Source: an uncultured Lentisphaerales bacterium
Lineage (GTDB): Bacteria; Verrucomicrobiota; Kiritimatiellia; RFP12; JAAYLN01
NCBI GenBank assembly: GCA_964592855.1
Contig: CAZQKI010000002.1
Span: forward strand, 4,356 to 68,355
Length of the DNA stretch: 64,000 bases
Direction of reading: 5' to 3'
In this document: positions 1 through 45,791 of the stretch, piece by piece
Numbering within the stretch: position 1 is the first letter of the stretch
Layout of the letters: each line of letters begins with the position of its first letter
Notes under the pieces: model-generated
Databases searched by the model: none
Seen by the model: only the letters and a program-made list of their open reading frames with translations
What the model was told of the DNA's origin: nothing
Made by a program: the position numbers and the translations under genes

Positions 1-1330
1 GGCCGATCCCCTCGCGGGCAATTTCGAGATAGCGGTCGGTGCCGAGGTAGCGATAGAGCAGGACGGCCCCGCGCAGGTAGCACGCATCGCGCCCGACCGC
101 CAGGCGCGGCCAGCTGTTCTTCTCGGTCCAATGGGCGGTTTCAATCACGGCCCGCGCGGCGTCGATGAGATAGGGATCGCCCGTCTCCAGCCAGGCGCCG
201 ATCGAGGCGAGGATTCGCGCCATTGGCAGCGCGAAGGCGTTGGGCGGAAACCCGTGCATGCGCACTTGTTTGGCGGCGTGGTCGATGATGACATCGGTGA
301 AGAACCAGGCGGCCCGCATGGCGGTGTCGTACACCTGGGCATCGCCCGTCCGCCAGGCCTGGAGGAACAGCCCGTAGGGCGCCTCGCCCTCCCATCCCGG
401 CTCGGGGCGATCGGAGCCTTCCACATAGCTCAGCCCCCGCGGGATGTTGCCGTCTTCGAAGCCCCCCGCATGTGTGTATTGCTTGGCGAATGTCGCCACG
501 CCGTCCAACAGCCGGTCGTACGTGTTGGAAACGGGCAGCCAGGGTCCCGCCCAGAACTCCTCGCAGGCGCCGTACCACCAGGCGGGGGCCACGTACCGCG
601 CGAGACGCGGCGAGCGCACGGGATTCAAGCTGAAGCGGAAGCGGATGGTCCGGGCCATGCCGCGGAGAAAGCGGTGCTCCCGGGAGCGGAGGATGAAGGG
701 ATCGCGTTTCTCGGCGTGCAAGCGCATGCCGCTGTACAACTCGGCGCCTTCATACGGCTGCCACACCAGAAACCCGTCCTCGGCATCCATCCGGCCGGGC
801 TGGCCGGGGGTCGCCAGCGCCGACGCTTCCGAGGCGTCGAATGCCACCGGGCCGAAGTCGAACGCCTCGCGGCTTCCGTCCCAGAGGCCGAGTCCGTTGA
901 ACCCGGCCGGGTCGGCATCGCCGCACCGGAACCCGATGACCGGCACGACATCGTCGAAGGCGGCGCCGTCGTCGGAGAACTTGCTGTTGATGTGGTGGGC
1001 GAAGATTTCGCAGACGCCGTTGGCATGCAGGCGGGCGTAGATGTGGCCGTTGAGCCAGTTGTGCTTGTGCAGGTGGGGATTTGTGAAGCCCGGGTGCTCC
1101 CGGAAGCTTTCGGCGCCGTAGGCATCCACGGGGATCGCCCCGCCCATCTCGACGACGGTGCAGCCGGGGGTACGCTCCACAACGACCAGCCGGCACGCCT
1201 CCCACCAATGCACTCCGCCCTGGGTGCGCAGCCCCATGGCAATCTGCGCCGTGACGCCGCCCCAGGTGATCCCGAGCGCGTGCTGTTCCCAGACGAAAAA
1301 CGGATCCGGGCTGCGCCGGATCGGAAGCAT
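1..1330 (-). CDS. Partial CDS (C-terminus beyond window start), hypothetical protein, possibly a polysaccharide-degrading enzyme
   Basis: Manual translation of the minus strand (codon tops congruent to 1 mod 3) gives a continuous sensible protein (...GFEDGNIPRGLSYVEGSDRPEPGWEGEAPYGLFLQAWRTGDAQVYDTAMRAAWFFTDVIIDHAAKQVRMHGFPPNAFALPMARILASIGAWLETGDPYLIDAAR...) running off the window edge. It is absent from the ORF track because no in-window stop exists. Start is uncertain; candidate ATG at 1330 (MLPIRRSPDPFFVWEQ...). The overlapping listed ORFs 131..1681(+) and 750..1706(-) are low-complexity antisense artefacts. Confidence 0.5.
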   Translation of the reverse strand, partial: MLPIRRSPDPFFVWEQHALGITWGGVTAQIAMGLRTQGGVHWWEACRLVVVERTPGCTVVEMGGAIPVDAYGAESFREHPGFTNPHLHKHNWLNGHIYARLHANGVCEIFAHHINSKFSDDGAAFDDVVPVIGFRCGDADPAGFNGLGLWDGSREAFDFGPVAFDASEASALATPGQPGRMDAEDGFLVWQPYEGAELYSGMRLHAEKRDPFILRSREHRFLRGMARTIRFRFSLNPVRSPRLARYVAPAWWYGACEEFWAGPWLPVSNTYDRLLDGVATFAKQYTHAGGFEDGNIPRGLSYVEGSDRPEPGWEGEAPYGLFLQAWRTGDAQVYDTAMRAAWFFTDVIIDHAAKQVRMHGFPPNAFALPMARILASIGAWLETGDPYLIDAARAVIETAHWTEKNSWPRLAVGRDACYLRGAVLLYRYLGTDRYLEIAREGIG

Positions 1331-1838
1331 GCCGGCCTGCGGCGGCGGCGCGACGGCCGGGGCACCGTTGGCGGTCAGGCGGAGGCTGGCGGGGGCCTCG
1401 CCCGCGTTGTCGGCGATGATGAGCGCGCGGCGGGGATTGCCGGGCGCCGCACCGGGCCAGTTGCCCAGCTCCTGGTTGTAGCTGCTGCGATTCGCGACGC
1501 TGTGGGGGACGACCTGTCCGCCGCGCGGGATCGGCACCGAAAGCGAGACGAGCCCAGCCGGCCCCGCCTCGCCGAGACGCTTGAATTCCAGTTGAGTAAG
1601 TTGCTGCTGAAGATAGGAAGAAGCCACAGTCGCTCCGATCGGGTATGCAATTCGAGAACAGGCGCCAATAAGCGGAAATGATGGCTGAGCCGTGTGCCGG
1701 ATGCAAGGAGAATGTGCATGCGTTTGCCCCGCGTTTGCCCCGCCGAAACGAACGACTAGTCTTTCGTGCGTGTTTCTGCTAGGATGAAACCCAAAAATCG
1801 TGCCGGACTTAATCCGCTGCACGGAGGAGAAGGTACTG

Positions 1839-3512
1839 ATGGCTTGGTTGACCGAGCGCAAAAACGAAGTGAAGATTCGACAGAGCAACGAGCTGTGGGC
1901 CGTTTGTCCCGCATGCAAGGGCCATGTCGATCGTTCCGTCTGGCAGAAGAACCTCCAGGTTTGTCCCAAGTGCAATGCGCACGAGCGGCTGAGCTGCCGT
2001 GAACGCATTGACCTTTTGACAGATGCCGGGTCTTTTCTGGAACTGAACGCAGCGGTGAGTTTCAACGATCCGCTGAATTTTTCGGATGACAGTGGAACCT
2101 ATGCGGCCAAGGCCAAAGCCACGGCCGTCAAGACGGGGATTGGCGAGGCGGTCGTCACCGGCACCGCGACGATGGGCGGAATGCCCGTCGTCCTGGGCGT
2201 CATGGACTTCCGCTTCATGGGCGGCAGCCTGGGCAGCGGGACCGGCGAACGCATCCTGCTGGCCTCGGAGGCGGCGCTGGCCAAGCGTCTGCCGCTGATC
2301 CTGGTGTCGGCCTCGGGGGGGGCGCGGATGCACGAGGGGATCGTCTCCCTGATGCAGATGGCGCGGACCTGCGCGGGGATCGCCCGCCTGCAGGAGGCGG
2401 GCCTGCCCTACCTCTCGGTCCTCACGGATCCCACGACGGGCGGCGTCTCGGCCAGCTATGCCATGGTCGGCGACTTGAACATCGCCGAGCCCAAGAGCCT
2501 GATCGGCTTCGCCGGCCGCCGGGTGATCGAGCAGACCATCAAGCAGAAGCTGCCGGACGATTTCCAGACGGCGGAATACCTGGAGGCGCATGGCTTCCTC
2601 GACAGCATTGTTCCGCGCAAGGAGATGAAGGCCTGGCTGGTCAACGTGATGAAGTACTACCGTCCCAGGCAGCCCAAGCTCACGGTACGGTCGGCGGCGC
2701 CGCTGGCGGCGAAGCGCGGCCAGAAGCTCACGCCGTGGGAAACGGTCCAGCTGGCGCGCCACGCCGAGCGGCCGACCATCCGCGACACCATCGCGGGCTG
2801 CTGCGACGACTTCGTCGAGCTGCACGGCGACCGCCTCTTCGGCGACGACCGCGGCATCATCGGCGGCTTCGCCACCCTGGGCGGCCTCCGCGTCATGCTG
2901 ATCGGCCACCAGAAGGGGAAGACGGTCGAGGAGAACATCGCCTCGAACTTCGGCATGGCCAACCCCGAAGGCTACCGCAAGGCGATGCGGCTGATGAAGC
3001 TGGCGGAGCGGTACGGGCTCCCCGTCGTCAGCCTGGTCGACACCCCCGGCGCCTACCCCGGCCTCGACGCCGAGGCCCGCGGCCAGGCCGAGGCGATCGC
3101 GCGCAACCTGACCGTCATGGCCACCCTGCGCACCCCCTATGTCGTCGTCGTCACGGGCGAAGGCGGCAGCGGCGGCGCCCTGGGCATTGCGGTGGGCGAT
3201 CGCGTGCTGATGCTTCAGAACGCCGTCTACTCGGTCATTTCGCCGGAAGGCTGCGCTTCGATCCTGTGGCGCGACGGCAAGAAGGCTCCCGAGGCGGCCG
3301 CGGCGCTGAAGATCACCTCCGACGAGCTGCTCAAGCTGGGCATCATCGACACGATCGTTCCCGAGCCCGCCGGGGGTGCGCACGTGGACCCGAAGACGGC
3401 GATCGAGGCGGTCAAGTCGGCCGTCCTTTCGGCGCTGGTGCCCCTGCTGAGCCTGCCGGTCGAGCAACTGGTTGCGCAGCGTTACGACAAATTCGCGGCG
3501 ATGGGGCGCTGA
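1839..3512 (+). CDS. accDA: Acetyl-CoA carboxylase carboxyltransferase, fused beta (AccD, N-terminal Zn-ribbon) and alpha (AccA) subunits
   Basis: N-terminal CxxC...CxxC zinc finger (CPACKG...CPKCNAH) and GMPVVLGVMDFRFMGGSLGSG are typical AccD. The C-terminal half (LTPWETVQLARHAERP...GGSGGALGIAVGDRVLMLQNAVYSVISPEGCASILW) is typical AccA. Start taken at MAWLTERK, preceded by GGAGGAGAAGG RBS. Confidence 0.85.
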   Translation: MAWLTERKNEVKIRQSNELWAVCPACKGHVDRSVWQKNLQVCPKCNAHERLSCRERIDLLTDAGSFLELNAAVSFNDPLNFSDDSGTYAAKAKATAVKTGIGEAVVTGTATMGGMPVVLGVMDFRFMGGSLGSGTGERILLASEAALAKRLPLILVSASGGARMHEGIVSLMQMARTCAGIARLQEAGLPYLSVLTDPTTGGVSASYAMVGDLNIAEPKSLIGFAGRRVIEQTIKQKLPDDFQTAEYLEAHGFLDSIVPRKEMKAWLVNVMKYYRPRQPKLTVRSAAPLAAKRGQKLTPWETVQLARHAERPTIRDTIAGCCDDFVELHGDRLFGDDRGIIGGFATLGGLRVMLIGHQKGKTVEENIASNFGMANPEGYRKAMRLMKLAERYGLPVVSLVDTPGAYPGLDAEARGQAEAIARNLTVMATLRTPYVVVVTGEGGSGGALGIAVGDRVLMLQNAVYSVISPEGCASILWRDGKKAPEAAAALKITSDELLKLGIIDTIVPEPAGGAHVDPKTAIEAVKSAVLSALVPLLSLPVEQLVAQRYDKFAAMGR

Positions 3513-3554
3513 GCGCGCCCCGGCCATTTCGTTCATCCGTAAAGATTTTCCACC

Positions 3555-5456
3555 ATGGCAAAAAAAGTAACAAAGATCCAGCCGGTTGACGGCACCGCCT
3601 CCGCGGTGCGTCCCCGCATTCATGTGACCGACACCACGCTCCGCGATGCGCATCAGTCCCTTTGGGCGACGCGCATGCGCATGGACGACATTCTGCCGGT
3701 CATCGACGTGATCGACCGCGCCGGCTACTATTCGCTCGAGTGCTGGGGCGGGGCGACCTTCGACGTCTGCCTCCGCTTCCTGCGCGAGAATCCCTGGGAG
3801 CGTCTCCGCCTCATCAAGGCGCGTTGCAAGACGCCGCTGCAGATGCTGCTGCGCGGACAGAACATCCTGGGCTACCGCAACTATCCCGACGATGTGCTCA
3901 AGCGCTTTGTCGAGCTGGCCGCGGCCAATGGCATCGACATCTTCCGCATCTTCGACGCGCTCAACGACACGCGCAACCTCGAACAGGCGATCCGCGCCGT
4001 CAAGGCCGTCGGCGCGCATGCACAGGGGACGATCAGCTACACCTTCAGCCCCGTCCACACGGTTGAAGCCTACGTGAAGCTGGCCCGGGAGATGGAGGCG
4101 CTCGGCGCCGATTCGATCTGCATCAAGGACATGGCGGGAATCCTGACGCCGTCGGCGGCGGAGGAACTGACGTCGGCGCTGACCACCGGCGTGAAGATTC
4201 CGGTTCAGCTGCATGCCCACATGACCAGCGGCATGGCGGTCGCGGCCTATCTCGCCGCGGTGCGCTCCGGCACCGGCGCCGTCGACTGTGCCGTGGCCTC
4301 GATGTCGGGCTGCGCGTCGCAGCCGGCTGTCGAAACCATCAACGCCGTGTTGAAGGCGGCTGGTTACGACACCGGACTGGACATGGACGCCATCCATGAG
4401 GTGAACCAGTACTTCCGCAAGCTCAAGCCCCTGCGCGAGCCCGATCACGGCATCGTCGATTTTGTCGATGTCAACGTGCTGGAGCACCACATTCCCGGCG
4501 GGATGATCTCCAACCTCCGCTCGCAGTTGCAGCAGCAGGGGGCTTTGGACCGGCTGGACGAGGTGCTGAAGGAGCTCCCCCGCGTCCGCGCCGACATGGG
4601 CTATCCGCCCCTCGTCACTCCCACCAGCCAGATCATCGGCGTCCAGGCAGTGCTCAACGTCATCGGCGGCGAGCGCTACGGCATGGTGCCGCAGGAGACG
4701 CGCGACTACGTGAAGGGCCTCTATGGCCGTTCGCCCGCCCCCATCGATCCGAAGTGGGCGAAGAAGATCCTCGGCGGCGAAAAGCCCGTCACCTGCCGCC
4801 CGGCCGACCTGCTCAAGCCCGGCCTGGCCGAGGCCGCCAGCGGCCTGGACGCCAAGCTCGTCCAAGCCGAGGAGGACATCCTCTCCTACTGCATCTTTCC
4901 CGAAGTGGCGCTGGGCTACTTCAAGTGGCGTGCGCTCCCGGTCGACCAGCGTCCGCCGTCGCCGGCCGAGCTGGAGCAGAAGGCCCAGGCGCCTGCTGCC
5001 GAAAAGCCGCCTGCGGCCGCGGCCGTGCCGGCTGCTGCCGACGACGATACCTTGCGCTTCGCCGAAATCGGTCGTACGCTGAGCCGGCTTTTCCGCCAGA
5101 TGGGCGGAGCGGCGCTTGGCCCGTGCGAGCCCCTTCCGGCGGATGCGCCGCCGGTCGCCGCCGCGCCGCAACCCCCCGCCGCCAAACCTGCGCCCGCCGC
5201 CGAGGCGGTTCCCGCGGGCGAGACGATCAACGCTCCCTTGAACGGCACCTTCTACCGGACCCCCGGCCCGGGCAAGGCGAATTTCGCCGAGGCGGGTGCG
5301 ACCTGCAAGGCCGGCGACACCGTCTGCGTCGTCGAGGCGATGAAACTCTTCAACAGCATCAAGGCCGCGAAGAACTGCAAGATCGTCAAGTTCCTGGTCG
5401 AGCACGGGGCCGTGGTGACCAAGGGGCAGCCCATGGCTGTAATCGAGACGCTGTAG
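3555..5456 (+). CDS. Biotin-dependent carboxyltransferase 5S subunit with C-terminal biotinyl (BCCP) domain: oxaloacetate decarboxylase alpha / pyruvate carboxylase subunit B family
   Basis: N-terminal HMGL-like TIM barrel ([23 protein letters not shown]), conserved carboxyltransferase domain, Ala/Pro-rich linker, and C-terminal biotin attachment motif [14 protein letters not shown]. Confidence 0.8.
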
Positions 5457-5458
5457 GA

Positions 5459-5950
5459 ATGAATGGGAGCGAACAGATCATCGAACGGCTGGCGCGGGCG
5501 GGGCAGAGCCTCGCCTGCGCCGAGTCGTGCACTGGCGGCCTGATTGCCGCGCGCCTGACGGATGTCCCGGGGGCATCGGCGGTTTTTCGCGGCGGCATCG
5601 TGGCCTACGCGAACGCCGTCAAGCAGACGCTGCTGGGCGTGGAGGAGTCGCTGCTCGAAACGGAGGGTGCGGTCAGCGCATCCTGCGCCTCGGTCATGGC
5701 CGAGGGGATACGCGACCGGCTGAAGAGCGACTGGGGTCTCGCGACAACGGGCATCGCGGGCCCCGGCGGCGCAACGCCGTCGAAGCCGGTGGGGTTGGTT
5801 TTCATTGCGGTGGCCGGCGCCGGCGAAACCCGCGTCGAACGCAACGTCTTTGCCGGCGACCGCGCCGGCGTGCGCGAACAGGCTGTCCACCGCGCGCTGG
5901 ACCTACTCCTCGCCTGCCTGGTGCCGGCCAGCGCTCACCCTTCGGCGTAG
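5459..5950 (+). CDS. CinA C-terminal domain protein / nicotinamide-nucleotide amidohydrolase (PncC-like)
   Basis: [38 protein letters not shown]...[12 protein letters not shown] matches the CinA_C / PncC family. ATG at 5459 lies 3 nt after the upstream stop. Confidence 0.75.
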
Positions 5951-6954
5951 CCCTGCGGATTCATCGACTGCCAGCGCCAGGCGTCGGCGCACATCGCGTC
6001 GATGCCGCGCCGGGCCTCCCACCCGAGCGCTTCGCGCGCAAAGGCGGGATCGGCATAGCAGGTCGCGACATCGCCGGGGCGGCGCGGCGAAATCGCGTAG
6101 GGAACGGGGCGTCCGCTGGCCTTCTCGAAGGCGTGGACCATGTCGAGCACGCTGTAGCCGTGGCCGGTGCCGAGGTTGACCGTGATCAATTCCCCGGGAT
6201 GCCCGCCGAGCCGGTCGATCGCCGCCAGGTGCCCTTGCGCCAGATCCACGACGTGGATGTAGTCGCGGACGCCCGTCCCGTCGGGGGTGGGGTAGTCGTT
6301 GCCGAAGACGCGCAACTGCTTCAGCTTGCCGACGGCGACTTGCGAGACGAAGGGGAGCAGGTTGTTGGGAATGCCGTTCGGATCCTCGCCGATGCGTCCG
6401 CTGATGTGGGCGCCGACGGGGTTGAAGTAGCGGAGGATGGCCATGCCCATCGCGGGGTCGGCGTGGTGGATGTCGCGGAGCATCTCTTCGATCATGAGCT
6501 TCGTCCGCCCGTAGGGGTTGGTTGCGCTCAGCGGAAAGTCTTCGCGGATCGGCACCGTCTCGGGAACGCCGTAGACGGTCGCCGACGAACTGAAGACCAG
6601 GTTCTTGACGCCGTGCGCGTTCATCGAGCCGATCAGCTCGATGGTGCTGATCAGATTGTTCCGGTAGTAGCGGAGGGGGATCGACACCGATTCACCGACG
6701 GCCTTGAGCCCGGCAAAGTGGATGACGGCATCGACGGGACGGGCGGCCATGACGGCGTCCAGCGCCGGGCGGTCCAGCAGATCGACCTGGTGGAAGACGG
6801 GGCTGCGCCCGGCCAGTTCCGCGATGCGCCGGACGGCTTCGGGCTTGCTGTTGACCAGGCTGTCGACGATGGTGACCTCGTCGCCGCGGGAGAGCAGCTC
6901 GACGACCGTGTGACTGCCAATATAGCCGGCGCCGCCGGTGACCAGAATGTGCAT
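5935..6954 (-). CDS. galE: UDP-glucose 4-epimerase
   Basis: [15 protein letters not shown] Rossmann motif, YGRTK catalytic motif, full-length GalE-like (340 aa). The listed ORF 5935..7089 carries a spurious 45-aa N-terminal extension; start chosen at MHILVTGG. Confidence 0.85.
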
Positions 6955-7094
6955 GTGCGTTAACCTCTCGAATGACCAGGCCGGAATTCTACGCCATGCC
7001 CCTCCGGTTGGCCATGAAATAATGTTCTGACATACTGCTTTCAATTTGGCTTGAGAGGGCCTAAAATATTGAGCGGAAGTGACGAACAAGAGCC

Positions 7095-7190
7095 GGTTGA
7101 CTGATAACTTGACCCATACTTGACTTATCCAGATACCGGTCTTATTTTGCGCAAGCGCTTATCGCAAAATAACGGATTGCGTTATGTTGA
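7095..7190. promoter_or_regulatory. Divergent promoter region with three phased TTGAC boxes and a 17-bp palindrome ATAACGgattgCGTTAT
   Basis: TTGAC at 7097, 7109 and 7120 (11-12 bp phasing). Perfect inverted repeat ATAACG-N5-CGTTAT at 7169..7185, about 50 bp upstream of the rmlD-like start. The region is markedly AT-rich relative to flanks. Confidence 0.3.
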
Positions 7191-7231
7191 AAAGCAAAAC
7201 AACGCTATGAAGAGACAACAGACAGTGAATT

Positions 7232-8143
7232 ATGACAAAGACAAAGCTGTTGATTACCGGTGCGACGGGGCTGCTGGGGCGGCCTCTCTTTCAATGCTGC
7301 CGTGCCGTCGATGACTGGCAGGTGACGGGGACGGCGTGGAGCCGGACCGGCCCCGGCCTGGAACGCATCGATCTGGCGGACACGGCGCGGCTGCCCGATT
7401 TTCTGCGCCGGATGTCGCCGCGGCTCATCATCCACTCCGCGGCGGAGCGCCGGCCGGACGTGAGCGAGAAGGATCCGGCTGGGACGCAGCGGCTGAATGT
7501 CGAAGCGACCGGGGTCATCGCGCAATGGGCCAAGGCCCACGGCGCGTTTCTGATCTACCTCTCCACGGACTACGTGTTCGACGGCACGAAGCCCCCGTAC
7601 CGTCACGACGACCCCACGCAGGCGATCAACGCCTATGGCCAGAGCAAGCTGGATGGCGAGCGGGCCATTTTGGCGGCCGGCGGTGCCGCGGCCGTGCTGC
7701 GCGTGCCGATTCTGTACGGTCCCTGCGAGAGCCTGGCCGAGTCGGCCGTCACGGTCCTGGCGCAGAACATGCTCGGTGCGCGCGCCGGGACTGGAACGCT
7801 CACGATGGAGCATTGGGCGACGCGCTACCCGACGCTGACGTCCGATCTGGCCGTCTTGCTGCGGCAGATGGCGGCGCGGCATCTCCGGGAGAACGACCTG
7901 GACGGCATCTACCATTGGAGCGGTGCGGAGCCCATGACCAAGTACGACATGGCGCTGGCGATGGGCCCGCAGCTTCGCTTCGATGTTGCGCGGCTCGTGG
8001 CCGACGCTCACCCGCCCGCGGGGGCGCCGCGGCCGAAGAACTGCCACCTCGACTCGGAGCGGCTGGAGCGGCTGGGCCTCGGACAGCGGACGCCCTTTGC
8101 CGTGGCGATCGCGCCGATTCTGGCGCAGTACGCGGGGGCGTAA
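7232..8143 (+). CDS. RmlD-like NAD(P)-dependent sugar reductase (dTDP-4-dehydrorhamnose reductase family)
   Basis: LLITGATGLLGRPL, IIHSAAERRPDV, YGQSKLDGE motifs of the RmlD substrate-binding-domain family. Confidence 0.7.
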   Translation: MTKTKLLITGATGLLGRPLFQCCRAVDDWQVTGTAWSRTGPGLERIDLADTARLPDFLRRMSPRLIIHSAAERRPDVSEKDPAGTQRLNVEATGVIAQWAKAHGAFLIYLSTDYVFDGTKPPYRHDDPTQAINAYGQSKLDGERAILAAGGAAAVLRVPILYGPCESLAESAVTVLAQNMLGARAGTGTLTMEHWATRYPTLTSDLAVLLRQMAARHLRENDLDGIYHWSGAEPMTKYDMALAMGPQLRFDVARLVADAHPPAGAPRPKNCHLDSERLERLGLGQRTPFAVAIAPILAQYAGA

Positions 8144-8203
8144 GCCCGTCGCTTGAAGCGGTCGAATCCCGCGCACGTGCGCGAAACCCACAAGGGAGAT
8201 CAG

Positions 8204-9190
8204 ATGGAAGCGAATGAACAGCTCAAGGTCCTGTTTCGCATCGCGAACGCCTTGGAGCGGATTGCCGCGGTCCTGGAGGGCAAGCGCCCGGCGGCGGCTG
8301 TCCCCGTCGTGACAACGCCCCCTCCGCCCCCGAAGCCCAGGCCCCCAAGGGCCACGGCGGTGCAGGCGCCGCCGGCACCACGTCCCGCGCCGGCCCCAGG
8401 CATGCCCCTCCCGCTGGTCCCGCGCATGACGAAAGCGCAAACGGCTGCAGCCGCCACCCTGGATGCATCCGCCCAGAGGGAACTCGTCGGCTATCTGCAG
8501 GCGTGCGGCTACAAGACGCAGGGACTGAAGTACAACGACGAATCGGAGACCTACAATCTGGCCAAGCAGATCTGGGCTTCGCGGACCATCTCGTTTCCCT
8601 TTCTGAAGTCGCTCCGCCACAATCTGGCCGACCGGGCCCGCTTCGCCTTTCCCTACAAGTCCTACGGCGACATGGACCGGGACCGGATGCGCTCGCTCTG
8701 CGACGTGCTGGGCAAGAAGGACATCATCGAGTATTACGAGGAGCCCGGGGCTTTTGTCGTGACGCCCAAGGTGGGCAATGCCAAGCAGCACTACATCACG
8801 GGCTTCTGGGGCGAGGAGATCGCGCTCTATCTGATCCGCAAGGTGATGACGGAGGTGTCGGCCCGGCAGAAGATGAAGTACAAGATCGTCCAGAATGTCG
8901 CGATGACCCGGCCGGGACCGGACGGCAAGTCCCAGTACCGCGCGGAGATCGACGCCGTGCTGCTGGTCAACCAGACCTTCTACTTCTTCGAAGTCAAAAC
9001 GGGCAACATTCTGAAGAAGTACGACGAGATGGCCCGTCTCCTGGCCGGCGAGCGGCACTTCTACATCATGTGCTGCATGGACCGTGCGAAGGGGCTCGAC
9101 AAGCTGCGCGAGACCAACCGGATCAAGGTGTTTCAACTGGATGCGCTGGAGCAGTCGTTGAAGACGCTCCTCGAATCGTCGCTGCGGTGA
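8204..9190 (+). CDS. Hypothetical protein with Pro-rich linker and C-terminal PD-(D/E)xK nuclease-like motif
   Basis: N-terminal helical segment (MEANEQLKVLFRIANALERIAAVLEG), Pro/Ala-rich linker (PPPPPKPRPPRATAVQAPPAPRPAPAP), C-terminal globular domain with WGEEIALYL ... EIDAVLLVNQ ... FYFFEVKTG (E...D...EVK arrangement). Start chosen at the second Met (MEANEQ). Confidence 0.55.
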   Translation: MEANEQLKVLFRIANALERIAAVLEGKRPAAAVPVVTTPPPPPKPRPPRATAVQAPPAPRPAPAPGMPLPLVPRMTKAQTAAAATLDASAQRELVGYLQACGYKTQGLKYNDESETYNLAKQIWASRTISFPFLKSLRHNLADRARFAFPYKSYGDMDRDRMRSLCDVLGKKDIIEYYEEPGAFVVTPKVGNAKQHYITGFWGEEIALYLIRKVMTEVSARQKMKYKIVQNVAMTRPGPDGKSQYRAEIDAVLLVNQTFYFFEVKTGNILKKYDEMARLLAGERHFYIMCCMDRAKGLDKLRETNRIKVFQLDALEQSLKTLLESSLR

Positions 9191-9261
9191 ACGCCGGGGT
9201 CACGTCAACTTCGTTGCCGCGCCGTTTGGAAGCCGAAAGGGCGCCATTATTCATCTCGCGC

Positions 9262-9358
9262 AAAGGGACGAAATGGACCCGGCGGTCCTCCGCCGTAGAG
9301 AAATGGAAGGTCGGGGCGGCTGCTCTTTTCGCCTACCGCCGGGGACGGCGGGGTCCAG
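9262..9358. repeat. REP-like element copy A (contains hairpin CGGCGGtcctCCGCCG)
   Basis: agggacgaaatggacccggcggtcctccgccgtagagaaatggaaggtcggggcggctgctcttttcgcctaccgccggggacggcggggtccag is near-identical to copy B 132 bp downstream; the core recurs at 45617. Confidence 0.7.
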
Positions 9359-9393
9359 TTCGTTCTATTTGCCGGAGGCCGAGGGGGCGGGTG

Positions 9394-9490
9394 CACAGGG
9401 ACGAAATGGACTCGGCGGTCCTCCGCCGTTGAGAATTGGAAGGTTGAGGCGGCTGCTCTTTTCGCCTGCCGCCGGGGACGGCGGGGTCCA
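9394..9490. repeat. REP-like element copy B
   Basis: About 90% identical direct repeat of copy A (ggactcggcggtcctccgccgttgagaattggaaggttgaggcggctgctcttttcgcctgccgccggggacggcggggtccag). Confidence 0.7.
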
Positions 9491-9705
9491 GTGCGGCTTC
9501 AGACGCCGAGTCGGGGGCACAATGAAGGGAGCCGTGGCAGGTTTGCGCCCCTTGTGCCTTGGGAGGCTATGCGCTTCATGGACAACGTCGGCATGCCTCT
9601 GCCGAATCTCGAGCATCCGACAAAGTTTGAGACAAAGCTCGCGACAAAGCTTCATGGGGGTAAACCAGACGGCCGGGGCGCAGATGCTCTGCAAGTCTCC
9701 TACTC

Positions 9706-9760
9706 GATCCAACTGGCCCGGCAAAGCCGGCCAGAGGCCGCACTGAATACTGAACCCTTG
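9706..9760. repeat. Second repeat module (hairpin CTGGCCCGGCAAAGCCGGCCAG + CACTGAA..CTGAACCCT)
   Basis: cgatccaactggcccggcaaagccggccagaggccgcactgaatactgaaccct matches gatccaactggcggccgccggccgccagaggccccactgaacgctgaaccct at 45653..45705. Confidence 0.65.
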
Positions 9761-9885
9761 CTACTCTGCGCGTCAACTATTTTTACGCGCACCCTGAACG
9801 CGGGCCGGCATTTTCCTCCGCTTGACTTTCGCGCAGATTCTGCGTACAACGGGGACGTTTGCACATTTTATTCGGAGGTTCCATC

Positions 9886-10713
9886 ATGGCTGAATACAAG
9901 ATTTCGCTGGCGTCGTACTCCTTCCACGGCATGCTGGGAGAAGGGGTCCGCGACGTTTTCGGCTATCTCGACGCGTTGAAGTACCGTCACCAGCTCGACT
10001 GGGCGGACATCTGGACGGGGTTCATTCCCACGCTCGACGACGCCTTCATCCGCAAGGTGCGGCAGGCCATGGATGCCCGCGGGATCCAGTTGGCCAACCT
10101 CTGTGTCGACGGTCCCTGCGTCTGGGTCGACACGCCGGAGAAGCGCCAGGCGAACAAGGCGCAGATGCTGCTGACGATCCAGGCCGCGCATCTGCTGGGC
10201 GCGAAGACGATCCGCATCGACTTCGGCGGCAAGGATGGCCACACCATGACCGAAGAGGCGTTCGACTGGATTGTCGCCACCTACCGCGAGTACTGCGCCA
10301 TCTGCGGCAATCTCGGCATGCGCATCGGCCCGGAGAACCACTGGGGCTGGGACCGGGTGCCGGCGTACCTCGAGCGTGTCCGCGCGGCGGTGGACTCGCC
10401 CGCCTACGGCCACCTGTATCACTTCACCAACTTTTTCGACGAGCCGGAGAAGGGGCAGGCGGTCGCGATATCCTATGCGATGCATACGCACATTCCGGCG
10501 AACAGTCTGCCGGTGGCGAAGGAGACGATCCGGAAACTCGCGGCCTCGGGCTACGCGGGCACCTATTCGGTCGAGCACCACTCCGGGGCGCATGAGGCGG
10601 AACGGGTGGAGTGGCAACTGGGTGCGGTGCGCAACTGCATCGTGGAACTGAAGGCGGAGGGCATTGGCGAGCCGGCGAAGACCGACTATGTCACCGCCCT
10701 CTACCAAAAATAA
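9886..10713 (+). CDS. Sugar phosphate isomerase/epimerase (xylose isomerase-like TIM barrel)
   Basis: MAEYKISLASYSF... AP-endonuclease-2 / xylose-isomerase-like TIM barrel pattern (IRIDFGG, GPENHWG, EHHSGAHE). Start at MAEYK, downstream of the spurious MHILFGGSI extension. Confidence 0.65.
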   Translation: MAEYKISLASYSFHGMLGEGVRDVFGYLDALKYRHQLDWADIWTGFIPTLDDAFIRKVRQAMDARGIQLANLCVDGPCVWVDTPEKRQANKAQMLLTIQAAHLLGAKTIRIDFGGKDGHTMTEEAFDWIVATYREYCAICGNLGMRIGPENHWGWDRVPAYLERVRAAVDSPAYGHLYHFTNFFDEPEKGQAVAISYAMHTHIPANSLPVAKETIRKLAASGYAGTYSVEHHSGAHEAERVEWQLGAVRNCIVELKAEGIGEPAKTDYVTALYQK

Positions 10714-10724
10714 GGAGCATGGAC

Positions 10725-11843
10725 ATGTCTGGCAAAATTCCCCTGGCCGTCATCGGCTGCGGCATCATTGGCGAGCAACACATCAGCACGTATGCGGACA
10801 ACCCGGATGCCGAGGTTGCGGCCATCTGCGACATCAACGAGGCGCGGCTCAACGCCATCGGCGACAAGTACCACATTGCCCGCCGGTTCACCCACATCGG
10901 GAAGCTGCTTCAGGAGAAGGATCTGGTCGCTGTGGACGTCTGCCTCCACAACAACCTGCACGCGCCGGTGTCGATCGCGGCCATGGAGGCGGGCAAGGAT
11001 GTCTACTGCGAGAAGCCCATGGCCGGCACCTATGCGGACGCACTGGCGATGCACGCGGCGATGAAACGGACGGGCCGGAGGCTGCACATTCAGCTGGCGC
11101 TGCTCTACACCGACGAATCCAAGGCGGCGAAGCGGATCATCGATGCCGGTCGCCTCGGAAATCTCTACCACATGCGCTCCTACGGCTTTCGCCGCCGGGG
11201 CCGGCCCTACGTGGACGGCTATGCCACGAAGGAGTTTGTGAACACCACGACCTCTGGCGGCGGTGCGCTGTTCGACATGGGCGTCTACCACATCTCGCAG
11301 CTGCTCTACCTCGCGGGGGTGCCCGTGCTGGAGCGTGTCACCGGTCAGACGTATGCCGAGATCGCGATGGACGAGAATCGCCGGGCGATCAGCGGTTTCA
11401 ACGTGGAGGAACTGGGGTGCGGATTCGCCACGTACGCCGGCGGACTGACGATGGACATCCTCGAAAGCTGGGCGATTCATGCGCGTCCTTTTCCCTCCTC
11501 GATCCTCTGCGGTTCGCAAGGCGGCCTCTCGCTTTCGCCCCTGGCGTTCCACTTCCGCGAGCAGGACATGGAAGCCGACCTGACGGTCGACCTCAAGGGG
11601 ATGAAAGGCTTGGACCACTCGGTCTATGCGGAATCGGCCTTTTACGACAGTTCCCAGTCGCACTGGACCCATGTGCTGGCGGGGCACTGCCCGCAGATCG
11701 ACACGCCGAGTATCGCTTTGGAGACGCAGAAGGTCCAGGAGGGCATCTACATCGCCACCCGGCTCGGACGTGAAGTCAGCGCGGAGGAGATCGAACGGCT
11801 ATCCGTCAGCCGCGCACTGGAGATTCCCAACCTGGCGCTCTAG
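10725..11843 (+). CDS. Gfo/Idh/MocA family NAD(P)-dependent oxidoreductase
   Basis: IPLAVIGCGIIGEQHISTY Rossmann N-terminus, EKPMA motif. AAGGAG RBS 6 nt upstream of ATG at 10725, immediately after the upstream stop. Confidence 0.8.
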   Translation: MSGKIPLAVIGCGIIGEQHISTYADNPDAEVAAICDINEARLNAIGDKYHIARRFTHIGKLLQEKDLVAVDVCLHNNLHAPVSIAAMEAGKDVYCEKPMAGTYADALAMHAAMKRTGRRLHIQLALLYTDESKAAKRIIDAGRLGNLYHMRSYGFRRRGRPYVDGYATKEFVNTTTSGGGALFDMGVYHISQLLYLAGVPVLERVTGQTYAEIAMDENRRAISGFNVEELGCGFATYAGGLTMDILESWAIHARPFPSSILCGSQGGLSLSPLAFHFREQDMEADLTVDLKGMKGLDHSVYAESAFYDSSQSHWTHVLAGHCPQIDTPSIALETQKVQEGIYIATRLGREVSAEEIERLSVSRALEIPNLAL

Positions 11844-11844
11844 C

Positions 11845-14094
11845 CTATCGGCCGCCGGCGAGCGTGCGGGCGAGGGTTTCGGCGGCCAGGCGGCGTCCGG
11901 CGTTGGTGAGCGTGCCGTCGACGACCGCGGGCGTCGCCTCGCGGGTGTGGCACATCGTGTAGAAATCGGCGACGGTGATGCCCAGGGCGTCGGCCACGCG
12001 GAGAACGGCTTCGGCGTAGGGGCGCATGGGGTCTTCGCCGGGATGTGTCGGGACCCGCATGTCGGCGGGCAGGAGGCCCGGCGGCGGCGTCATGAGAACC
12101 ACCTGGGCGGGCAGGGCGTCGCGGAGGAGGCCGGCGAGGGCGGCGAGTCGGCGCTCGAAGTCCTCCAGCGTTTCGCCTGCGGCGAGGCCGGGCATGTCGG
12201 GCGCGACCACGACGATGTCGGCGGGGTTCAGCCGGGCCAGCTGCGTCAGGGGCGCAAGACGGTCGAAGGTTCGCGTGGGAATGAATGCCTTGAGGGATTC
12301 AACGCTCTGCCTCCGGTAACGGATGGAATTGGCCGCGAGGCCGGGAATCTGCGCGCCGAATACCTGGATGTCGGAGAGGAACTGACGGTCAAACGCCAGA
12401 CCATTGTCCTCGCCGCCCAGTCCGGGCGGCGCCAGAAAGCCGTCGAGCAGGGTGATTTGCTGTCCGGGGCGAAGTCCGGTGAAGGGGGCCGGATGACCGC
12501 TGGAGGCGCGCCGCGGCATCAGCACGCAGGACGCCTCGCCCATGACCATGAAGCTGCCGTCGAGATCGTCGGGGAGGGCTTCGAAGGGTTGGCGGAGAAA
12601 GCGGATCGCCCCGTTGTTGACCGTGACGCCGGCATGGCTCACCGTCCAGCGGATGGAGGTGAAATCGTGGGCGGTGCCGACGGGGAGCACGAGGCGTGTC
12701 CATCCCTGCTGGAGGGTGACGACCTCGCGGTACATCTTCTCCACTCCCTCCGGCGTTGTCGTCCAGGCGGTCAGCGTCAAGGGCAGGGAATCGGGTGCCG
12801 TGCCGCGAAGGTGGATTTCGGGTTGGACGGGGTCGTCGTCGTAGCAGATGGCGGGGACGCCCTGCAGGCGCGTGGCCAGGCGGTATTCGTTGCCGATGGT
12901 GTCGGGAATCACAACCGTCAGGCGCGCGGTTTCGCAGGCCCCCGGCTTGTTCCGGACTTCCAGGTCAACGGGCAGGGCGCCGGTGTTGGTTGCGATGATG
13001 CGGCACCGGGGGGTTTCGCCCAGCGTGGCGCCCGCCTGTTTCCAAAGGCAGCTGACATCCTGCGCACCCTCCCAGGCGGCATGGATGCTGCGCAGCGAGA
13101 CGGGGGTGAAACGGGTCTCGTGGCCATAAAAGACGTAGCTGGGCTCCAAGGCGTAGTCGGCGCCCGCGTGCAGGGTGGCGCCGATGCGTTCGACGCGGGC
13201 GGCGACGGGATCGGCTCCGGTGAGCAGGGCCGCTTGCGGCAGCTCGACGATGGCGTCGGTTCCCGGCGGGATCCATCCCAGGTTAAGATTGATTTCGCGG
13301 TCGCAGAGCGTCAGCACGGTGTAGTCGAGGATGCCGGCGCGGAGTGGAATCGGATCGCTCGGCATCCAATCGTCGTCCTTGCGCGAACGCGAGCCGACCT
13401 GGAAGACCAGCTTGTCCTGAAGCAGGAGATAGACGGGTTTGCGGCTTTTGACGGCGAATCGGAATTCGCCGGACGCGGGGATCAGCATCTTGCCCGAGAG
13501 TTTGGCCACGTAGACGGGACGCCGCCAGCCGCCCTGGTACCAATTGCGCGGGCCCTGCTCGTTGCTGACGACGGGGATGAAGCCCTCCAGCGGAAACTGC
13601 ACCGGCTGCCGCCCCGGGCGCGTGGACATAAAGCGCATCTCCTCCCAAGTGGGGGGAGCTTCGTTGGCACCCGCCCGCTGGATTGAGACGGAGACCGGCT
13701 GCGGATCGACGAAGGGGCAATCGGGTGCAAGGGGCGTCGTGTTGGTGATGGCATAGAGCGCGACGACCGCCTGCGGCGCCAGACCCTCGCAATTGACCAG
13801 CACGCTCACGGCACCGGCATTGGTCGCGGCCACGCGCAGACTGCGGGGCGATGCCCCATGATAGGCGGCGACGCGGGAGATCTGGCCATCGACGACGGAT
13901 CCCGCGGGAATTTCGACCAGGGCAAGACGCTGATTCGCGGGAGCCTGGAAGACCACCCGCACGGGTGCATCGGCATGCTGCCACGGCGGATCCGGGGCTT
14001 GCGCCTGAACCGTCCCGGCGAAGGCCAGCGACACCGCCAGGAGCAGGTGCTGCCGGCCGTTTACTGATAAAAGATGGCGGATTCCGTGTTCCAT
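11845..14094 (-). CDS. Secreted multidomain protein with C-terminal SGNH/GDSL-like hydrolase domain
   Basis: Signal-peptide-like N-terminus (MEHGIRHLLSVNGRQHLLLAVSLAFAGTVQAQA). The C-terminal ~200 aa (DIVVVAPDMPGLAAGETLEDFERRLAALAGLL...ADFYT) resemble SGNH esterases. The N-terminal 39 codons of the listed ORF were excluded. Confidence 0.55.
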   Translation of the reverse strand: MEHGIRHLLSVNGRQHLLLAVSLAFAGTVQAQAPDPPWQHADAPVRVVFQAPANQRLALVEIPAGSVVDGQISRVAAYHGASPRSLRVAATNAGAVSVLVNCEGLAPQAVVALYAITNTTPLAPDCPFVDPQPVSVSIQRAGANEAPPTWEEMRFMSTRPGRQPVQFPLEGFIPVVSNEQGPRNWYQGGWRRPVYVAKLSGKMLIPASGEFRFAVKSRKPVYLLLQDKLVFQVGSRSRKDDDWMPSDPIPLRAGILDYTVLTLCDREINLNLGWIPPGTDAIVELPQAALLTGADPVAARVERIGATLHAGADYALEPSYVFYGHETRFTPVSLRSIHAAWEGAQDVSCLWKQAGATLGETPRCRIIATNTGALPVDLEVRNKPGACETARLTVVIPDTIGNEYRLATRLQGVPAICYDDDPVQPEIHLRGTAPDSLPLTLTAWTTTPEGVEKMYREVVTLQQGWTRLVLPVGTAHDFTSIRWTVSHAGVTVNNGAIRFLRQPFEALPDDLDGSFMVMGEASCVLMPRRASSGHPAPFTGLRPGQQITLLDGFLAPPGLGGEDNGLAFDRQFLSDIQVFGAQIPGLAANSIRYRRQSVESLKAFIPTRTFDRLAPLTQLARLNPADIVVVAPDMPGLAAGETLEDFERRLAALAGLLRDALPAQVVLMTPPPGLLPADMRVPTHPGEDPMRPYAEAVLRVADALGITVADFYTMCHTREATPAVVDGTLTNAGRRLAAETLARTLAGGR

Positions 14095-14291
14095 TACCTG
14101 TCTACTCGAGAATGCGGTCTTGTGAACAGAGCTTCTTGCGTTTCGACCATTTCCATGCTCAAACTCAGTCTGATGCCCGGTGAGCCGCATTATTTGCGGC
14201 GCGGGCGGCACCGTGCCGGACGGTGCTCCAATTCAACTGCCGTCGCATTTGCTCCCGCGTTCTGGCACGCTTTGTGCGTTTATTATCCCGC

Positions 14292-15098
14292 ATGTCAGCT
14301 CAGCCTCAACCTGCCGCGCGGCAACCCAACAGAGCCCAATCGGACTCTGCAGGGCATCCGTTGCAATTTGCGTGCCAGACGCGCGGCGGATTCACCCTTT
14401 TTGAGATGATGGTGGTGGTCTTGATCATCTCGATTCTGGCGGCCATGACGGCGGTGGCGGTCAACAGCGCCAAGGAGAAGGCGCGCCAGACCGACTGCAT
14501 GTCCAACCTTCGGCAACTGGGGACGGCGATCGTGACCTATCGCGCCGACAATCGCGGGCGCAACCCCGGCTGGCTTTCAAACCTCTATCCGACGTATATC
14601 GACGACAAACGGGTCTATATCTGCCGGAGTGACAAGGCGAGAGGCCTTGGCGATTGTCGTCCCGGTGTTTCCGAAATCAATGGCCAGGATAACGTCTTTG
14701 ACAATAGGGACAACGCTTTGAGGCGAAACCCCGCGCAGGTTCCACAGATGGCCAATGATGCCATAGAAGCATGCAGCTACTTCTATGAGTTTTCGGCGGC
14801 GCCAAGCCCCTGGTCTACGGAAGATCTTGATGGCGACGGATTCACGACCTGGTGCGATTTCAAGGAAAACCAGTTGGCGAAGGGCGATCAGAATAATGAG
14901 AACATGCCGTACAGCTCGTCACGGATGCCGATTGTGCGTTGCTATCACCACACAAATTCTGGCAAAATCAGGGGCTATGCCAATGAGAACGCGACCACGC
15001 CCTCGCTTGAGCCAATTACCCTCAACGTAGCGTATGCGGGCAATGTCATCATCTCACCGCTTTGGTGGGAGGGTGCGCTGGAACCCGGTGAACAGTAA
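14292..15098 (+). CDS. Prepilin-type N-terminal cleavage/methylation domain protein (pseudopilin-like, DUF1559-type)
   Basis: GFTLFEMMVVVLIISILAAM class III signal preceded by a long 32-aa leader. Start set at MSAQPQP; the earlier listed start gives an implausible Cys/Arg-rich extension. Confidence 0.7.
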   Translation: MSAQPQPAARQPNRAQSDSAGHPLQFACQTRGGFTLFEMMVVVLIISILAAMTAVAVNSAKEKARQTDCMSNLRQLGTAIVTYRADNRGRNPGWLSNLYPTYIDDKRVYICRSDKARGLGDCRPGVSEINGQDNVFDNRDNALRRNPAQVPQMANDAIEACSYFYEFSAAPSPWSTEDLDGDGFTTWCDFKENQLAKGDQNNENMPYSSSRMPIVRCYHHTNSGKIRGYANENATTPSLEPITLNVAYAGNVIISPLWWEGALEPGEQ

Positions 15099-22204: not shown

Positions 22205-22213
22205 TGCGGGCCG

Positions 22214-22262
22214 GTAATCAGTAATCAGTCATCAGTAATCAGTGATCAGTAATCGGTGATCA
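22214..22262. repeat. Tandem heptanucleotide repeat (GTNATCA)x7
   Basis: gtaatca gtaatca gtcatca gtaatca gtgatca gtaatcg gtgatca read directly, 10 nt after the pilB stop. Confidence 0.9.
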
Positions 22263-45284: not shown

Positions 45285-45530
45285 GGACGCTTACGGCGAC
45301 GCTTACGGTCGACGACAAGACGGTGCTTCTCGTAATCCGTAAGCGTCGCCGAACGCGTCATCCGGGTCCCACGGCAGTTACCCGATTCTTTGTCTCGATC
45401 TTTGTCTCGATCTTCGTCGATCTGAAGCTATGTCCCGATCCTCGTCCCGATCTTTGTCGGTCGACAATGATCGGAACAAGGATCAAGACAAGGATCAGGA
45501 CAACGATCCGGAGCCCCGATACTGACCGAG
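45285..45530. repeat. Repeat-rich leader region upstream of hisD (direct and inverted repeats)
   Basis: gacgcttacgg x2 with inverted copy ccgtaagcgtcgcc (45290..45355). ctttgtctcgat x2 plus gtcccgatc repeats, mirrored by gatcaagacaaggatcaggacaa (45385..45510). Confidence 0.6.
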
Positions 45531-45598
45531 AAAGGGCCGAACGACGGTGTACAGGGTAGGCTCGCAAGCTCGCCCCCATGACGCCGGAGCGTTATCCG

Positions 45599-45720
45599 TC
45601 TCGCGCAAAGGTGATCTGGACTCGGCGGTCCTCCGCCGTAGAGAAATCCCACTTGATCCAACTGGCGGCCGCCGGCCGCCAGAGGCCCCACTGAACGCTG
45701 AACCCTGTCCCCTGAACCCT
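45599..45720. repeat. REP-like composite element (same family as 9262..9760)
   Basis: cgcgcaaagg...ggactcggcggtcctccgccgtagagaaat followed by gatccaactggcggccgccggccgccagaggccccactgaacgctgaaccct. Both modules adjacent here, separated by ~300 bp at the first locus. Confidence 0.7.
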
Positions 45721-45791
45721 CGGTGCACGGCAACGCAGTTGACGCGCATCCGATGGATGCGGGCCCGGTCGGGTGGTGCGCCGCACGCCGA

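Follow-up and report, generated by a model that had tools for sequence, protein, structure and literature searches.

What kind of element places the same structured repeats in two distant intergenic spacers of an uncultured Lentisphaerales bacterium? We analysed a stretch of 64,000 nucleotides from one contig of its genome (CAZQKI010000002.1; the whole stretch is hereafter called the window), in which the repeats lie in a first spacer at 9191-9885 (locus 1) and a second one at 45002-45791 (locus 2). An earlier note on this DNA had described two direct copies of one repeat (module 1) followed by a second module. It had proposed a dispersed, structured family, either similar to repetitive extragenic palindromes (REPs) and bacterial interspersed mosaic elements (BIMEs) or composed of small RNA genes, rather than a local duplication. 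Everything that it described is present in the sequence, but four corrections were needed. We conclude that module 1 is very probably a pair of non-autonomous REPINs (inverted REP doublets that fold into one hairpin) in a BIME-2-like tandem, amplified by a REP-associated tyrosine transposase (RAYT) encoded elsewhere in the genome, and that it lies within a larger mosaic of repeats. The anatomy of the repeats, their dispersal, and their association with a RAYT gene in relatives and in a contig that co-occurs with the window were demonstrated.

Anatomy and dispersal of the REP pairs

The two direct copies had been given as about 97 bp long and about 90% identical; they are present, with a corrected size of 103 nt and an identity of 92% (9260-9362 versus 9393-9495). 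The repeat finder reported a start-to-start spacing of 133 and located a 31-nt core of the repeat also at 45617-45647. The core listed previously as 32 bp is 30 nt long. The 21-nt core GGACCCGGCGGTCCTCCGCCG occurs in the window in three copies that have no more than one mismatch each and lie on the + strand (positions 9275, 9408 and 45618), compared with 0.05 expected from shuffled sequences, and none of 100 shuffles reached three. Both loci share the start sequence CGCGCAAAGG (9257-9266 and 45602-45611), as had been stated. One hairpin per copy had been described; it is present, but each copy is in fact an imperfect palindrome of two inverted REPs, termed a and b. The components of module 1 are listed below, where labels beginning with L denote loci and contigs from other genomes and metagenomes.

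9257..9273, + strand: leader/linker CGCGCAAAGGGACGAAA, which precedes each REP a and is part of the 133-nt tandem unit
9274..9296, + strand: REP a1, T-GGAC-C-CGGCGG-TCCT-CCGCCG-T, a 6-bp hairpin as single-stranded DNA (ssDNA)
9335..9357, - strand: REP b1, inverted, T-GGAC-C-CCGCCG-TCCC-CGGCGG-T, partner of a1
9274-9357: REPIN 1 (a1 + b1), 84 nt
9358..9406, + strand: linker between the tandem REPINs, GTTCGTTCTATTTGCCGGAGGCC..., with the same linker in L064, L065 and L073
9407..9429, + strand: REP a2
9468..9490, - strand: REP b2, inverted, partner of a2
9407-9490: REPIN 2 (a2 + b2), 84 nt, 93% identical to REPIN 1
9491..9539, + strand: junction segment GTGCGGCTTCAGACGCCGAGTCGGGGGC... after the last REPIN, collinear with L073 4127-4175 and about 505-541
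45592..45647, + strand: leader, lone REP a3 (45617-45639) and 9 nt of REPIN spacer, a truncated REPIN

The general form of REP a, which is 23 nt long, is T-GGAC-N-CGGCGG-TCCT-CCGCCG-T; its 6-bp stem is perfect and its loop has 4 nt. A spacer of about 38 nt separates it from the inverted REP b. In each REP, an unpaired 5' tag (T)GGAC and a single spacer base precede a 6-bp G+C stem with a TCC(T/C) loop; a T lies on the 3' side and is followed by variable bases, often TAG or TAA. The two types have tag and loop in common and their stem arms exchanged (CGGCGG versus CCGCCG), which amounts to four substitutions, all compensatory, and therefore each small hairpin survives inside the larger REPIN fold. 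This swap around an invariant tag and loop provides a clear, testable prediction of what the transposase reads. When folded as ssDNA, the 84-nt REPIN forms an outer tag-tag stem that encloses the hairpins of both REPs; three of four units gave z values between -2.5 and -3.6 (-3.35 for REPIN 1). Both modules had been reported to recur at 45599..45720. Module 2 does so, but of module 1 only the left part is found there, namely the leader and one REP: the segment 45592-45647 is 86% identical to module 1 over 58 nt, and the second, inverted REP is absent from locus 2. The leader CGCGCAAAGGGACGAAA is conserved ahead of REP a at this locus (45602-45616) as well as in the units of L064 and L073.

We took a census of REP-like hairpins in 171 kb of loci from the Planctomycetes-Verrucomicrobia-Chlamydiae (PVC) group, with a perfect 6-bp stem of G and C and a loop reading TCCY as the sole requirements. 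Among the 70 hairpins obtained, 61 had TGGAC at positions -6 to -2 and 66 had T at +1; the tag was also present in 30 of the 32 b-type REPs, a type that had never been part of any search pattern. TCCT, TCCC and their complements were nearly the only loops on stems of this kind, and four stem variants occurred, each of them perfectly complementary. Judged by sequence, this pattern is the signature of a structure-plus-tag recognition site and not of drifting duplication.

The repeats in the window share several properties with the known classes. They are extragenic stem-loop units in the range of 20-40 nt, with five REPs at two loci (REPs); the inverted pairs at 9274-9357 and 9407-9490 can each fold as one hairpin (REPINs); and the tandem has a period of 133 nt, differing REP types, conserved linkers and a unit number that varies by locus (BIME-2-like). 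Two tandem units are found in the window, about 1.5 at each L073 locus and about 3.5 + 3.5 around the RAYT gene of L064.

When 185,579 species genomes were scanned with GGACNCGGCGGTCCTCCGCCGT, matches were obtained at 14 loci; neither this collection nor the collection of metagenome contigs includes the window's own genome. Thirteen of these loci, several of them with clusters, come from metagenome-assembled genomes (MAGs) classified as Lentisphaerae, Lentisphaerales, Victivallales, Kiritimatiellia, Verrucomicrobiota or 'PVC group'. The remaining one, from Micromonospora (L019), has no T before GGAC and no partner REP; it is probably a chance match and was not accepted as a member of the family. 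Scanning the metagenome contigs, a collection without the window's own samples, for REP a gave 32 single-copy matches from unrelated samples, and scans of viral contigs for REP a and for the module-2 hairpin gave no match. Near-identical REPIN units are present elsewhere in the metagenomes that hold this strain, on L064, L073 and L074. A HMMER search with the pseudo-open reading frame (pseudo-ORF) 9273-9743 of the window yielded eight matches, including a 90%-identical 158-aa ORF, L073, L064 and one further module-2-like fragment. L073 was found through a search with a spurious Joint Genome Institute (JGI) ORF called across REPINs; its sample, 3300045131, also contains the window's strain, and L074 is from the same metagenome set. 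With the REP core at 13 loci of PVC MAGs, near-identical REPINs on the three contigs and repeats that flank a RAYT gene in four relatives, the evidence supports the proposal of a dispersed, structured REP/BIME-like family rather than a local duplication.

The ends of other assemblies provided further evidence of multi-copy sequence. Assemblies made independently from the same strain match the window at 99.9-100% identity. Among them, five Logan contigs, obtained from five sequencing runs, have their start at 9754, inside module 2, and in four independent short-read contigs the last position is 45618, where the GGAC tag of the REP begins. One more independent contig ends at 45686, and two JGI contigs end at 9326 and 45472, so that all five positions fall within repeat modules. 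Unrelated assemblies break at the same bases and therefore behave as expected of multi-copy sequence. Contig ends of this kind can be used in practice to recognise multi-copy sequence, and breaks at such places are one cause of the fragmentation of MAGs.

A transposase gene among the same repeats

On L024, a contig of a Lentisphaerales MAG, a 159-aa ORF (1618-2097, - strand) is surrounded by five a-type and many b-type REPs. This ORF has 26 homologues in the protein collection, most of them on very short contigs and each on 1-5 contigs only. The alignments of the homologues contain an invariant P-D-H-x-H (mostly MPDHVHFF, the HUH motif), (D)CWDTQ and Y-x3-NP-x-R-x2-L. Residues H71, H73, Y129, N133 and P134 (numbered as in P0002, the 158-aa homologue from L064) are invariant in 23 aligned homologues, and the corresponding columns are likewise invariant in a 25-row alignment. 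The combination of an HUH motif with a single catalytic tyrosine in a Y-x3-NP-x-R context is found in the relatives and in L064; the window has no such gene.

The NCBIfam model NF047646 (REP_Tyr_transpos, 'REP-associated tyrosine transposase') was matched by all 25 of 25 homologues, with a best E of 1.3e-22, and the NCBIfam IS200 model by one of 25. The best PDB match of the family profile was 4ER8, the E. coli TnpA-REP (E = 5.7e-12), while IS200-type transposases gave E of at least 0.02. An AlphaFold2 model of P0002 (mean predicted local distance difference test score, 87) was closest to 4ER8_A, with a template modelling (TM) score of 0.67 and a root-mean-square deviation of 2.3 Å over 128 columns, at about 21% identity over the aligned fold; the TM scores against IS200, IS608 and ISDra2 were 0.43-0.50. 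Because the NCBIfam match, the profile and the predicted fold are all nearest to TnpA-REP, sequence and modelling together identify the REP-associated protein as a divergent RAYT of the HUH/Y1 type. By analogy with E. coli TnpA-REP (PMC3333891; 4ER8), it would bind and cleave REP ssDNA.

P0002 is encoded on two contigs, L064 (JGI sample 3300044990) and L065 (3300044987). Sample 3300044990 also holds L001, a 13.1-kb contig that is 99.9% identical to positions 1213-14318 of the window. On L064 the RAYT gene (698-1174) splits the spacer of a single REPIN, whose REP a (581-601) lies before the gene and whose REP b (1207-1227) lies after it, and about 3.5 tandem REPIN units lie on either side of the gene on L064/L065. 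This arrangement is that of a REPtron. The L064 units carry the linker of the window, GGTCCAGTTCGTTCTATTTGCCGGAGGCC...GCGCAAAGGGA(C/T)GAA(A/G)TGGACC, and over the 84 nt of the REPIN, REPIN 1 of the window is 87-94% identical to the units of L064 and 94-95% identical to those of L073. A RAYT gene flanked on both sides by inverted REPs is found on L064/L065 and, in the same geometry of forward REP, gene and inverted REP, at the RAYT homologues of L024, L066 and L075. The homologue on L070 is located within arrays of its own, different hairpin repeats, and its flanking orientation was left out of the count of inverted geometries. Among the homologues, the REP sequences co-vary with the RAYT protein. 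Beside the REPtron of L064, upstream of an acetyltransferase gene, the segment 2240-2340 contains tandem 12-mers CAACGAGGAAGC and then AACGAATTA, short tandem repeats similar in style to those of the window spacers.

In the most likely mechanism, a RAYT (TnpA-REP, an HUH/Y1 tyrosine transposase) encoded elsewhere would make, move and amplify the REPINs on ssDNA. Its source would be a REPtron, in which the gene is placed inside a REPIN and ringed by REPIN arrays, and the enzyme presumably cleaves at the tag/hairpin. For the host, the repeats may act in mRNA 3'-end protection, in attenuation or in protein binding.

Good descriptions exist of REPs, REPINs, BIMEs and RAYTs (PMC3116915, PMC3333891, PMC5581495), and RAYTs occur in about a quarter of the species with complete genomes. 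The E. coli REPtron and BIME-2 are made of tandem REPs of two types, with conserved linkers and a variable number of units, and the y and z REPs of this species 'differ ... but nevertheless retain complementarity' (PMC3333891). The repeats described here resemble the REP/BIME-2 system of E. coli (Ton-Hoang et al. 2012, PMC3333891) in their G+C-rich hairpin with an unpaired 5' tag, in having two REP types that differ in the stem yet remain complementary, and in the tandem amplification of inverted pairs with conserved linkers; as in the E. coli REPtron, a Y1/HUH gene is located between inverted REPs, and 4ER8 is the top profile and fold match of its product. The differences from E. coli are a tag TGGAC in place of GTAG, a perfect 6-bp stem with a 4-nt loop in place of a 30-40-nt imperfect palindrome, a distant transposase with one recorded NCBIfam score below the cutoff, a host from the PVC group, and the embedding of the REPINs among unrelated repeat modules. 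With the REPINs of Pseudomonas fluorescens SBW25 (Bertels & Rainey 2011, PMC3116915; Bertels et al. 2017, PMC5581495) they share a REP doublet of about 60-110 nt that folds into a long hairpin, copies that are about 87-95% identical, and a RAYT located among the REPINs that it supposedly disseminates.

GTAG-tagged REPs are already known in the PVC superphylum, from Opitutus terrae and Rhodopirellula baltica, and both Verrucomicrobia and Planctomycetes have REP families that form dimers, head-to-head or tail-to-tail (Di Nocera et al. 2013, PMC3733652), so that the presence of REPs in this superphylum is no novelty in itself. However, the unpaired TGGAC conserved in the census fits neither the GTAG nor the CGTC consensus and places these REPs outside both described tag superfamilies (PMC3733652). 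G-TAG is frequent here but not conserved, and it is found 3' of the hairpin, which is the wrong side for a GTAG REP. The present system departs from those described in three respects: its tag (TGGAC), its divergent clade of RAYTs and its particular mosaic. The surrounding mosaic is the only part that may prove novel. REP/REPIN/RAYT biology is extended to uncultured bacteria of the Verrucomicrobiota/Lentisphaerae type, through a RAYT clade that is mostly missed by Pfam.

The mosaic around the REPINs

The REPINs are accompanied by other repeat modules, three of which lie in the two loci:

9562..9795, + strand: module 2, long subtype, 84% identical to L073 674-903; 9618-9794 is 85% identical to L026 310-482
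45384..45528, + strand: GATC/GACAAG palindrome of 12-nt tandem units, the left-hand module of the mosaic
45647..45751, + strand: module 2, short subtype, 86% identical to L073 4237-4338 and 89% to L026 54-1

Module 2 had been placed at 9706..9760; the module and its hairpin are present, but it extends over about 230 nt (9562-9795) and not 55 nt. Its core CCAGAGGCCnCACTGAAnnCTGAACCC is found at 9731 and 45679, with no occurrence expected, and the hairpins are CTGGCCCGGCAAAGCCGGCCAG (9713-9734) and CTGGCGGCCGCCGGCCGCCAG (45662-45682). The long subtype contains three copies of GACAAAG (9619-9651), the 9-bp hairpin (9713-9734), a CACTGAAyrCTGAACCCT motif and a terminal hairpin GCGCGT...ACGCGC (9768-9790), and all copies of module 2 end in ...ACGCGCA(C/T)CC. 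Between the two subtypes, two base pairs of the 9-bp hairpin differ and both are compensated. Module 2 is not a REP of the TGGAC family. It was excluded as coding sequence by a 1-nt frame-shifting indel in the stem, and a protein-database search with its pseudo-ORF gave no candidates. The GACAAAG copies have a 12-nt spacing, and the triplet also occurs at L026 310-345, L073 731-761, L074 1403-1433 and L055 4060-4093. A two-motif GACAAAG pattern had six matches in the window against 0.06 expected, five of them in the two loci and one, with three mismatches, at 31752. From its sequence, the triplet could be a protein-binding array.

In the palindrome at 45384-45528, which is about 150 nt long and GATC-rich, (CTTTGTCnCGAT)n stands opposite (GATCnnGACAAG)n. 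Its DNA fold has z = -2.4, and a search of Rfam with it yielded spurious miRNA-type matches. Copies are found at L073 3796-3913 (89%) and L073 137-308 (78%), each to the left of a REPIN block, and a partial match occurs in L057.

Module 2 and the palindrome accompany REPINs at no fewer than four further loci, with the order usually kept. In L073, two spacers are built like those of the window: palindrome, 1.5 REPIN units, junction, optional extra modules and module 2, the last being of the long subtype in one spacer and of the short subtype in the other. Positions 9331-9539 of the window are 91% identical to L073 3967-4175 over 209 nt. By comparison of these sequences, locus 2 looks like the L073 3768-4464 arrangement after a deletion, with the REPIN spacer joined to module 2 between ...GAAAT and CCCACT. 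The REPINs are, on the evidence of these alignments, part of a BIME-like mosaic of several repeat families. The spacers are assembled from at least five co-travelling families, namely TGGAC REPINs, module 2, GATC/GACAAG palindromes, GACAAAG triplets, and further hairpin or tandem modules. Spacers composed of several co-recurring repeat families are also known from Neisseria, where CGTC-1 REPs are interleaved with other families (cited in PMC3733652), but those families and their host are unrelated, and here the module order is partly conserved.

The mosaic probably originated by block duplication, by recombination between REP-bearing spacers or by capture of flanks by the transposase. TnpA-REP can cleave at a distance and thereby 'sequester additional flanking sequences' (Ton-Hoang et al., PMC3333891), which offers one route to such mosaics; recombination between REP spacers is another.

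The partly conserved order raises the possibility that the spreading unit is the whole mosaic (palindrome, REPIN or REPINs, junction and module 2) and the REPIN a mere passenger or component of it. Such a unit would be a larger composite element without autonomy, or an intergenic cassette that the host maintains; it would be either copied as one block or made uniform through recombination or gene conversion, and module 2 and the palindrome would be separate, undescribed repeat families. We regard this explanation as possible but doubtful. It agrees with the identical module order at locus 2 and in both L073 regions, of which locus 1 retains the portion from REPIN through junction to module 2, with the resemblance of locus 2 to a deletion derivative of L073 3768-4464, and with the conservation of the non-REP parts (the junction within the 209-nt match at 91%, module 2 at 84-89%, the palindrome at 78-89%). 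The module-2 hairpin, with its two compensatory pairs between subtypes, itself looks REP-like, and short-read assemblies break inside module 2 too (9754 and 45686). The order is not universal, however: in L026 the REPIN has module 2 at a distance of 430 nt upstream, and further left there is a partial copy in reversed orientation. The extra modules found between the same neighbours are not the same ones (L073 540-660 and L073 4176-4228), and the palindrome-REPIN join point differs at each locus, which is a better fit to independent events or recombination than to one fixed element. The arrays that flank the RAYT gene of L064 consist of REPINs only, with no module 2, and neither terminal inverted repeats nor target duplications were found. 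A narrower version, in which the mosaic is a distinct composite element, either mobilised by the RAYT with captured flanks or kept by the host as a protein-binding or nucleoid-organising cassette, appears unlikely. If it were true, module 2 and the palindromes would be repeat classes without a described counterpart.

Amplification of the REPINs by a RAYT encoded elsewhere remains the preferred explanation, and several points weigh against it. The evidence in the window amounts to five REPs at two loci in 64 kb, and tblastn of the RAYT against the 64-kb window found no copy. The link from L064 to the genome of the window is a putative one, made through co-occurrence in one sample and repeat identity only. 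On NF047646, the L024 ORF obtained 41.3 bits, the sole recorded score, which is below the curated cutoff of 80, and Pfam Y1_Tnp was matched at E < 0.01 by only four of the 25 homologues. The 5' tag is not the GTAG or CGTC of the described superfamilies, and no connection of module 2 or the palindrome module with a RAYT was demonstrated.

Other repeat modules were observed in these spacers. A hairpin repeat TATGCGCCCGCGCAGCGGGA with the stem CCCGC/GCGGG occurs twice per locus in L073 540-660 and L026 1270-1350, between the REPIN and module 2, and is absent from the window; its sequence suggests that several REP-like families coexist in the lineage. A module at 45213-45277 (...GTCCGATACGTCCCG...) is shared with L074 867-931 (91%), where it is present as an inverted pair, and with L026 729-773 (83%). 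The window also contains a third repeat-dense spacer, 22205-22940, without REPs. It comprises GTAATCA seven times (22214-22264), CGCAAAGG three times (22282-22306), CGGTTAAGAGTG three times (22493-22531; compare CGACTAAGAGTG, seven times in L026 1070-1170), a 26-nt inverted repeat with 96% complementarity (22573-22598 / 22786-22811), mirror tracts that are GT-rich and CA-rich (22642-22750), and GAGGAC three times (22863-22891), which is 97% identical to L073 4200-4227.

Flanking genes and the remaining explanations

A Y1 HUH enzyme could also point to ordinary insertion sequences. The REPINs would then be miniatures, such as miniature inverted-repeat or palindrome-associated transposable elements (MITEs or PATEs), of multicopy IS200/IS605 elements and not of a domesticated single-copy RAYT. 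The ends of IS200/IS605 elements also bear subterminal hairpins, which is a further likeness; the protein belongs to the same superfamily, and the few homologues that touch Pfam Y1_Tnp and the one that matches the IS200 model of NCBIfam are in line with it. The profile and the predicted fold are, however, clearly nearer to TnpA-REP than to IS200, IS608 or ISDra2. No tnpB-like second ORF adjoins the gene, its flanks are many short REPs in both orientations and not distinct left and right ends, and each homologue was seen on 1-5 contigs only. We therefore consider such an origin very improbable.

The position of the repeats relative to genes bears on the proposal that they are structured RNAs. 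The two loci have the following neighbours:

8153-9190, + strand: gene for a 345-aa protein, upstream of locus 1
9191-9885: spacer of locus 1, 695 nt, between the 345-aa gene and the sugar-phosphate isomerase/AP_endonuc_2 gene
9886-10713, + strand: sugar-phosphate isomerase/AP_endonuc_2 gene, downstream of locus 1
43703-45001, - strand: hisD, neighbour of locus 2
45002-45791: spacer of locus 2, between hisD and the HAD-like hydrolase gene
45792-46676, - strand: HAD-like hydrolase gene, neighbour of locus 2

Both repeat loci are intergenic, between called genes. At locus 1 the repeats run in the direction of both flanking genes, and at locus 2 they are antisense to both; the block has no fixed orientation relative to genes. 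As RNA, they would be a small RNA family, a tandem riboswitch or attenuator ahead of the isomerase gene, or selected stabilisers in the 3' untranslated region. The REPIN and the module-2 hairpin are stable as RNA (z = -3.07 for copy A), compensatory changes preserve both hairpins, the co-directional block of locus 1 ends about 90 nt upstream of the ATG at 9886, and effects of REPs on mRNA stability and attenuation are known (PMC3733652, PMC3333891). Nevertheless, copy B and locus 2 fold as RNA no better than shuffled sequences do (z = -0.6), and the neighbouring genes are unrelated between the loci. Rfam 15 had no match at the gathering score in the whole window, relaxed Rfam searches of both loci gave chance-level miRNA or sRNA matches caused by hairpin shape, and scans for promoters and terminators found no excess over shuffles. 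A scan for tRNA and tmRNA was likewise negative. The same repeats enclose a transposase gene, and covariation in the hairpins is equally expected from recognition of ssDNA by a RAYT. With no Rfam match, no excess of promoters or terminators and differing orientation to genes, the small RNA gene family put forward in the earlier note was not upheld, and we give structured RNA the least credence of the explanations weighed here. A CRISPR array was rejected for the lack of a constant spacer-repeat pattern and the arrangement of the repeats in inverted pairs, integron attC sites for the lack of R'/R'' core sites and the association with a RAYT, and coding sequence for the frame-shifting indel and the absence of Pfam matches and gene calls.

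The ORFs across 9190-9860 had been called repeat-derived artefacts. Consistent with this, a Pfam search of the ORFs overlapping both loci gave zero matches, JGI gene calls on identical contigs include none inside the locus-1 spacer, and the indel between the copies of module 2 shifts the frame. Spurious 'hypothetical proteins' of 191-255 aa, produced by gene callers at L064 1171-1746, L073 94-861 and L074 960-1559, are translated REPIN arrays or mosaic modules that are now in protein databases. Annotation problems in these MAGs are explained in this way, both the contig breaks at repeats and spurious proteins such as L064 1171-1746 and L073 94-861.

The gene upstream of locus 1 is followed, directly 3' of its stop codon, by the sequence GTCACGTCAACTTCGTTGCCGCGCC (9199-9223), which repeats in inverted orientation the right end of module 2 in its short subtype (compare 45727-45751 and L026 1-30). 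Termini of module 2 thus stand loosely on both sides of locus 1, although the match is too short for a terminal inverted repeat to be called. The product of this upstream gene (8153-9190) has an N-terminal part rich in proline and a weak match to NERD (nuclease-related; E = 3.5e-4), just short of the Pfam cutoff.

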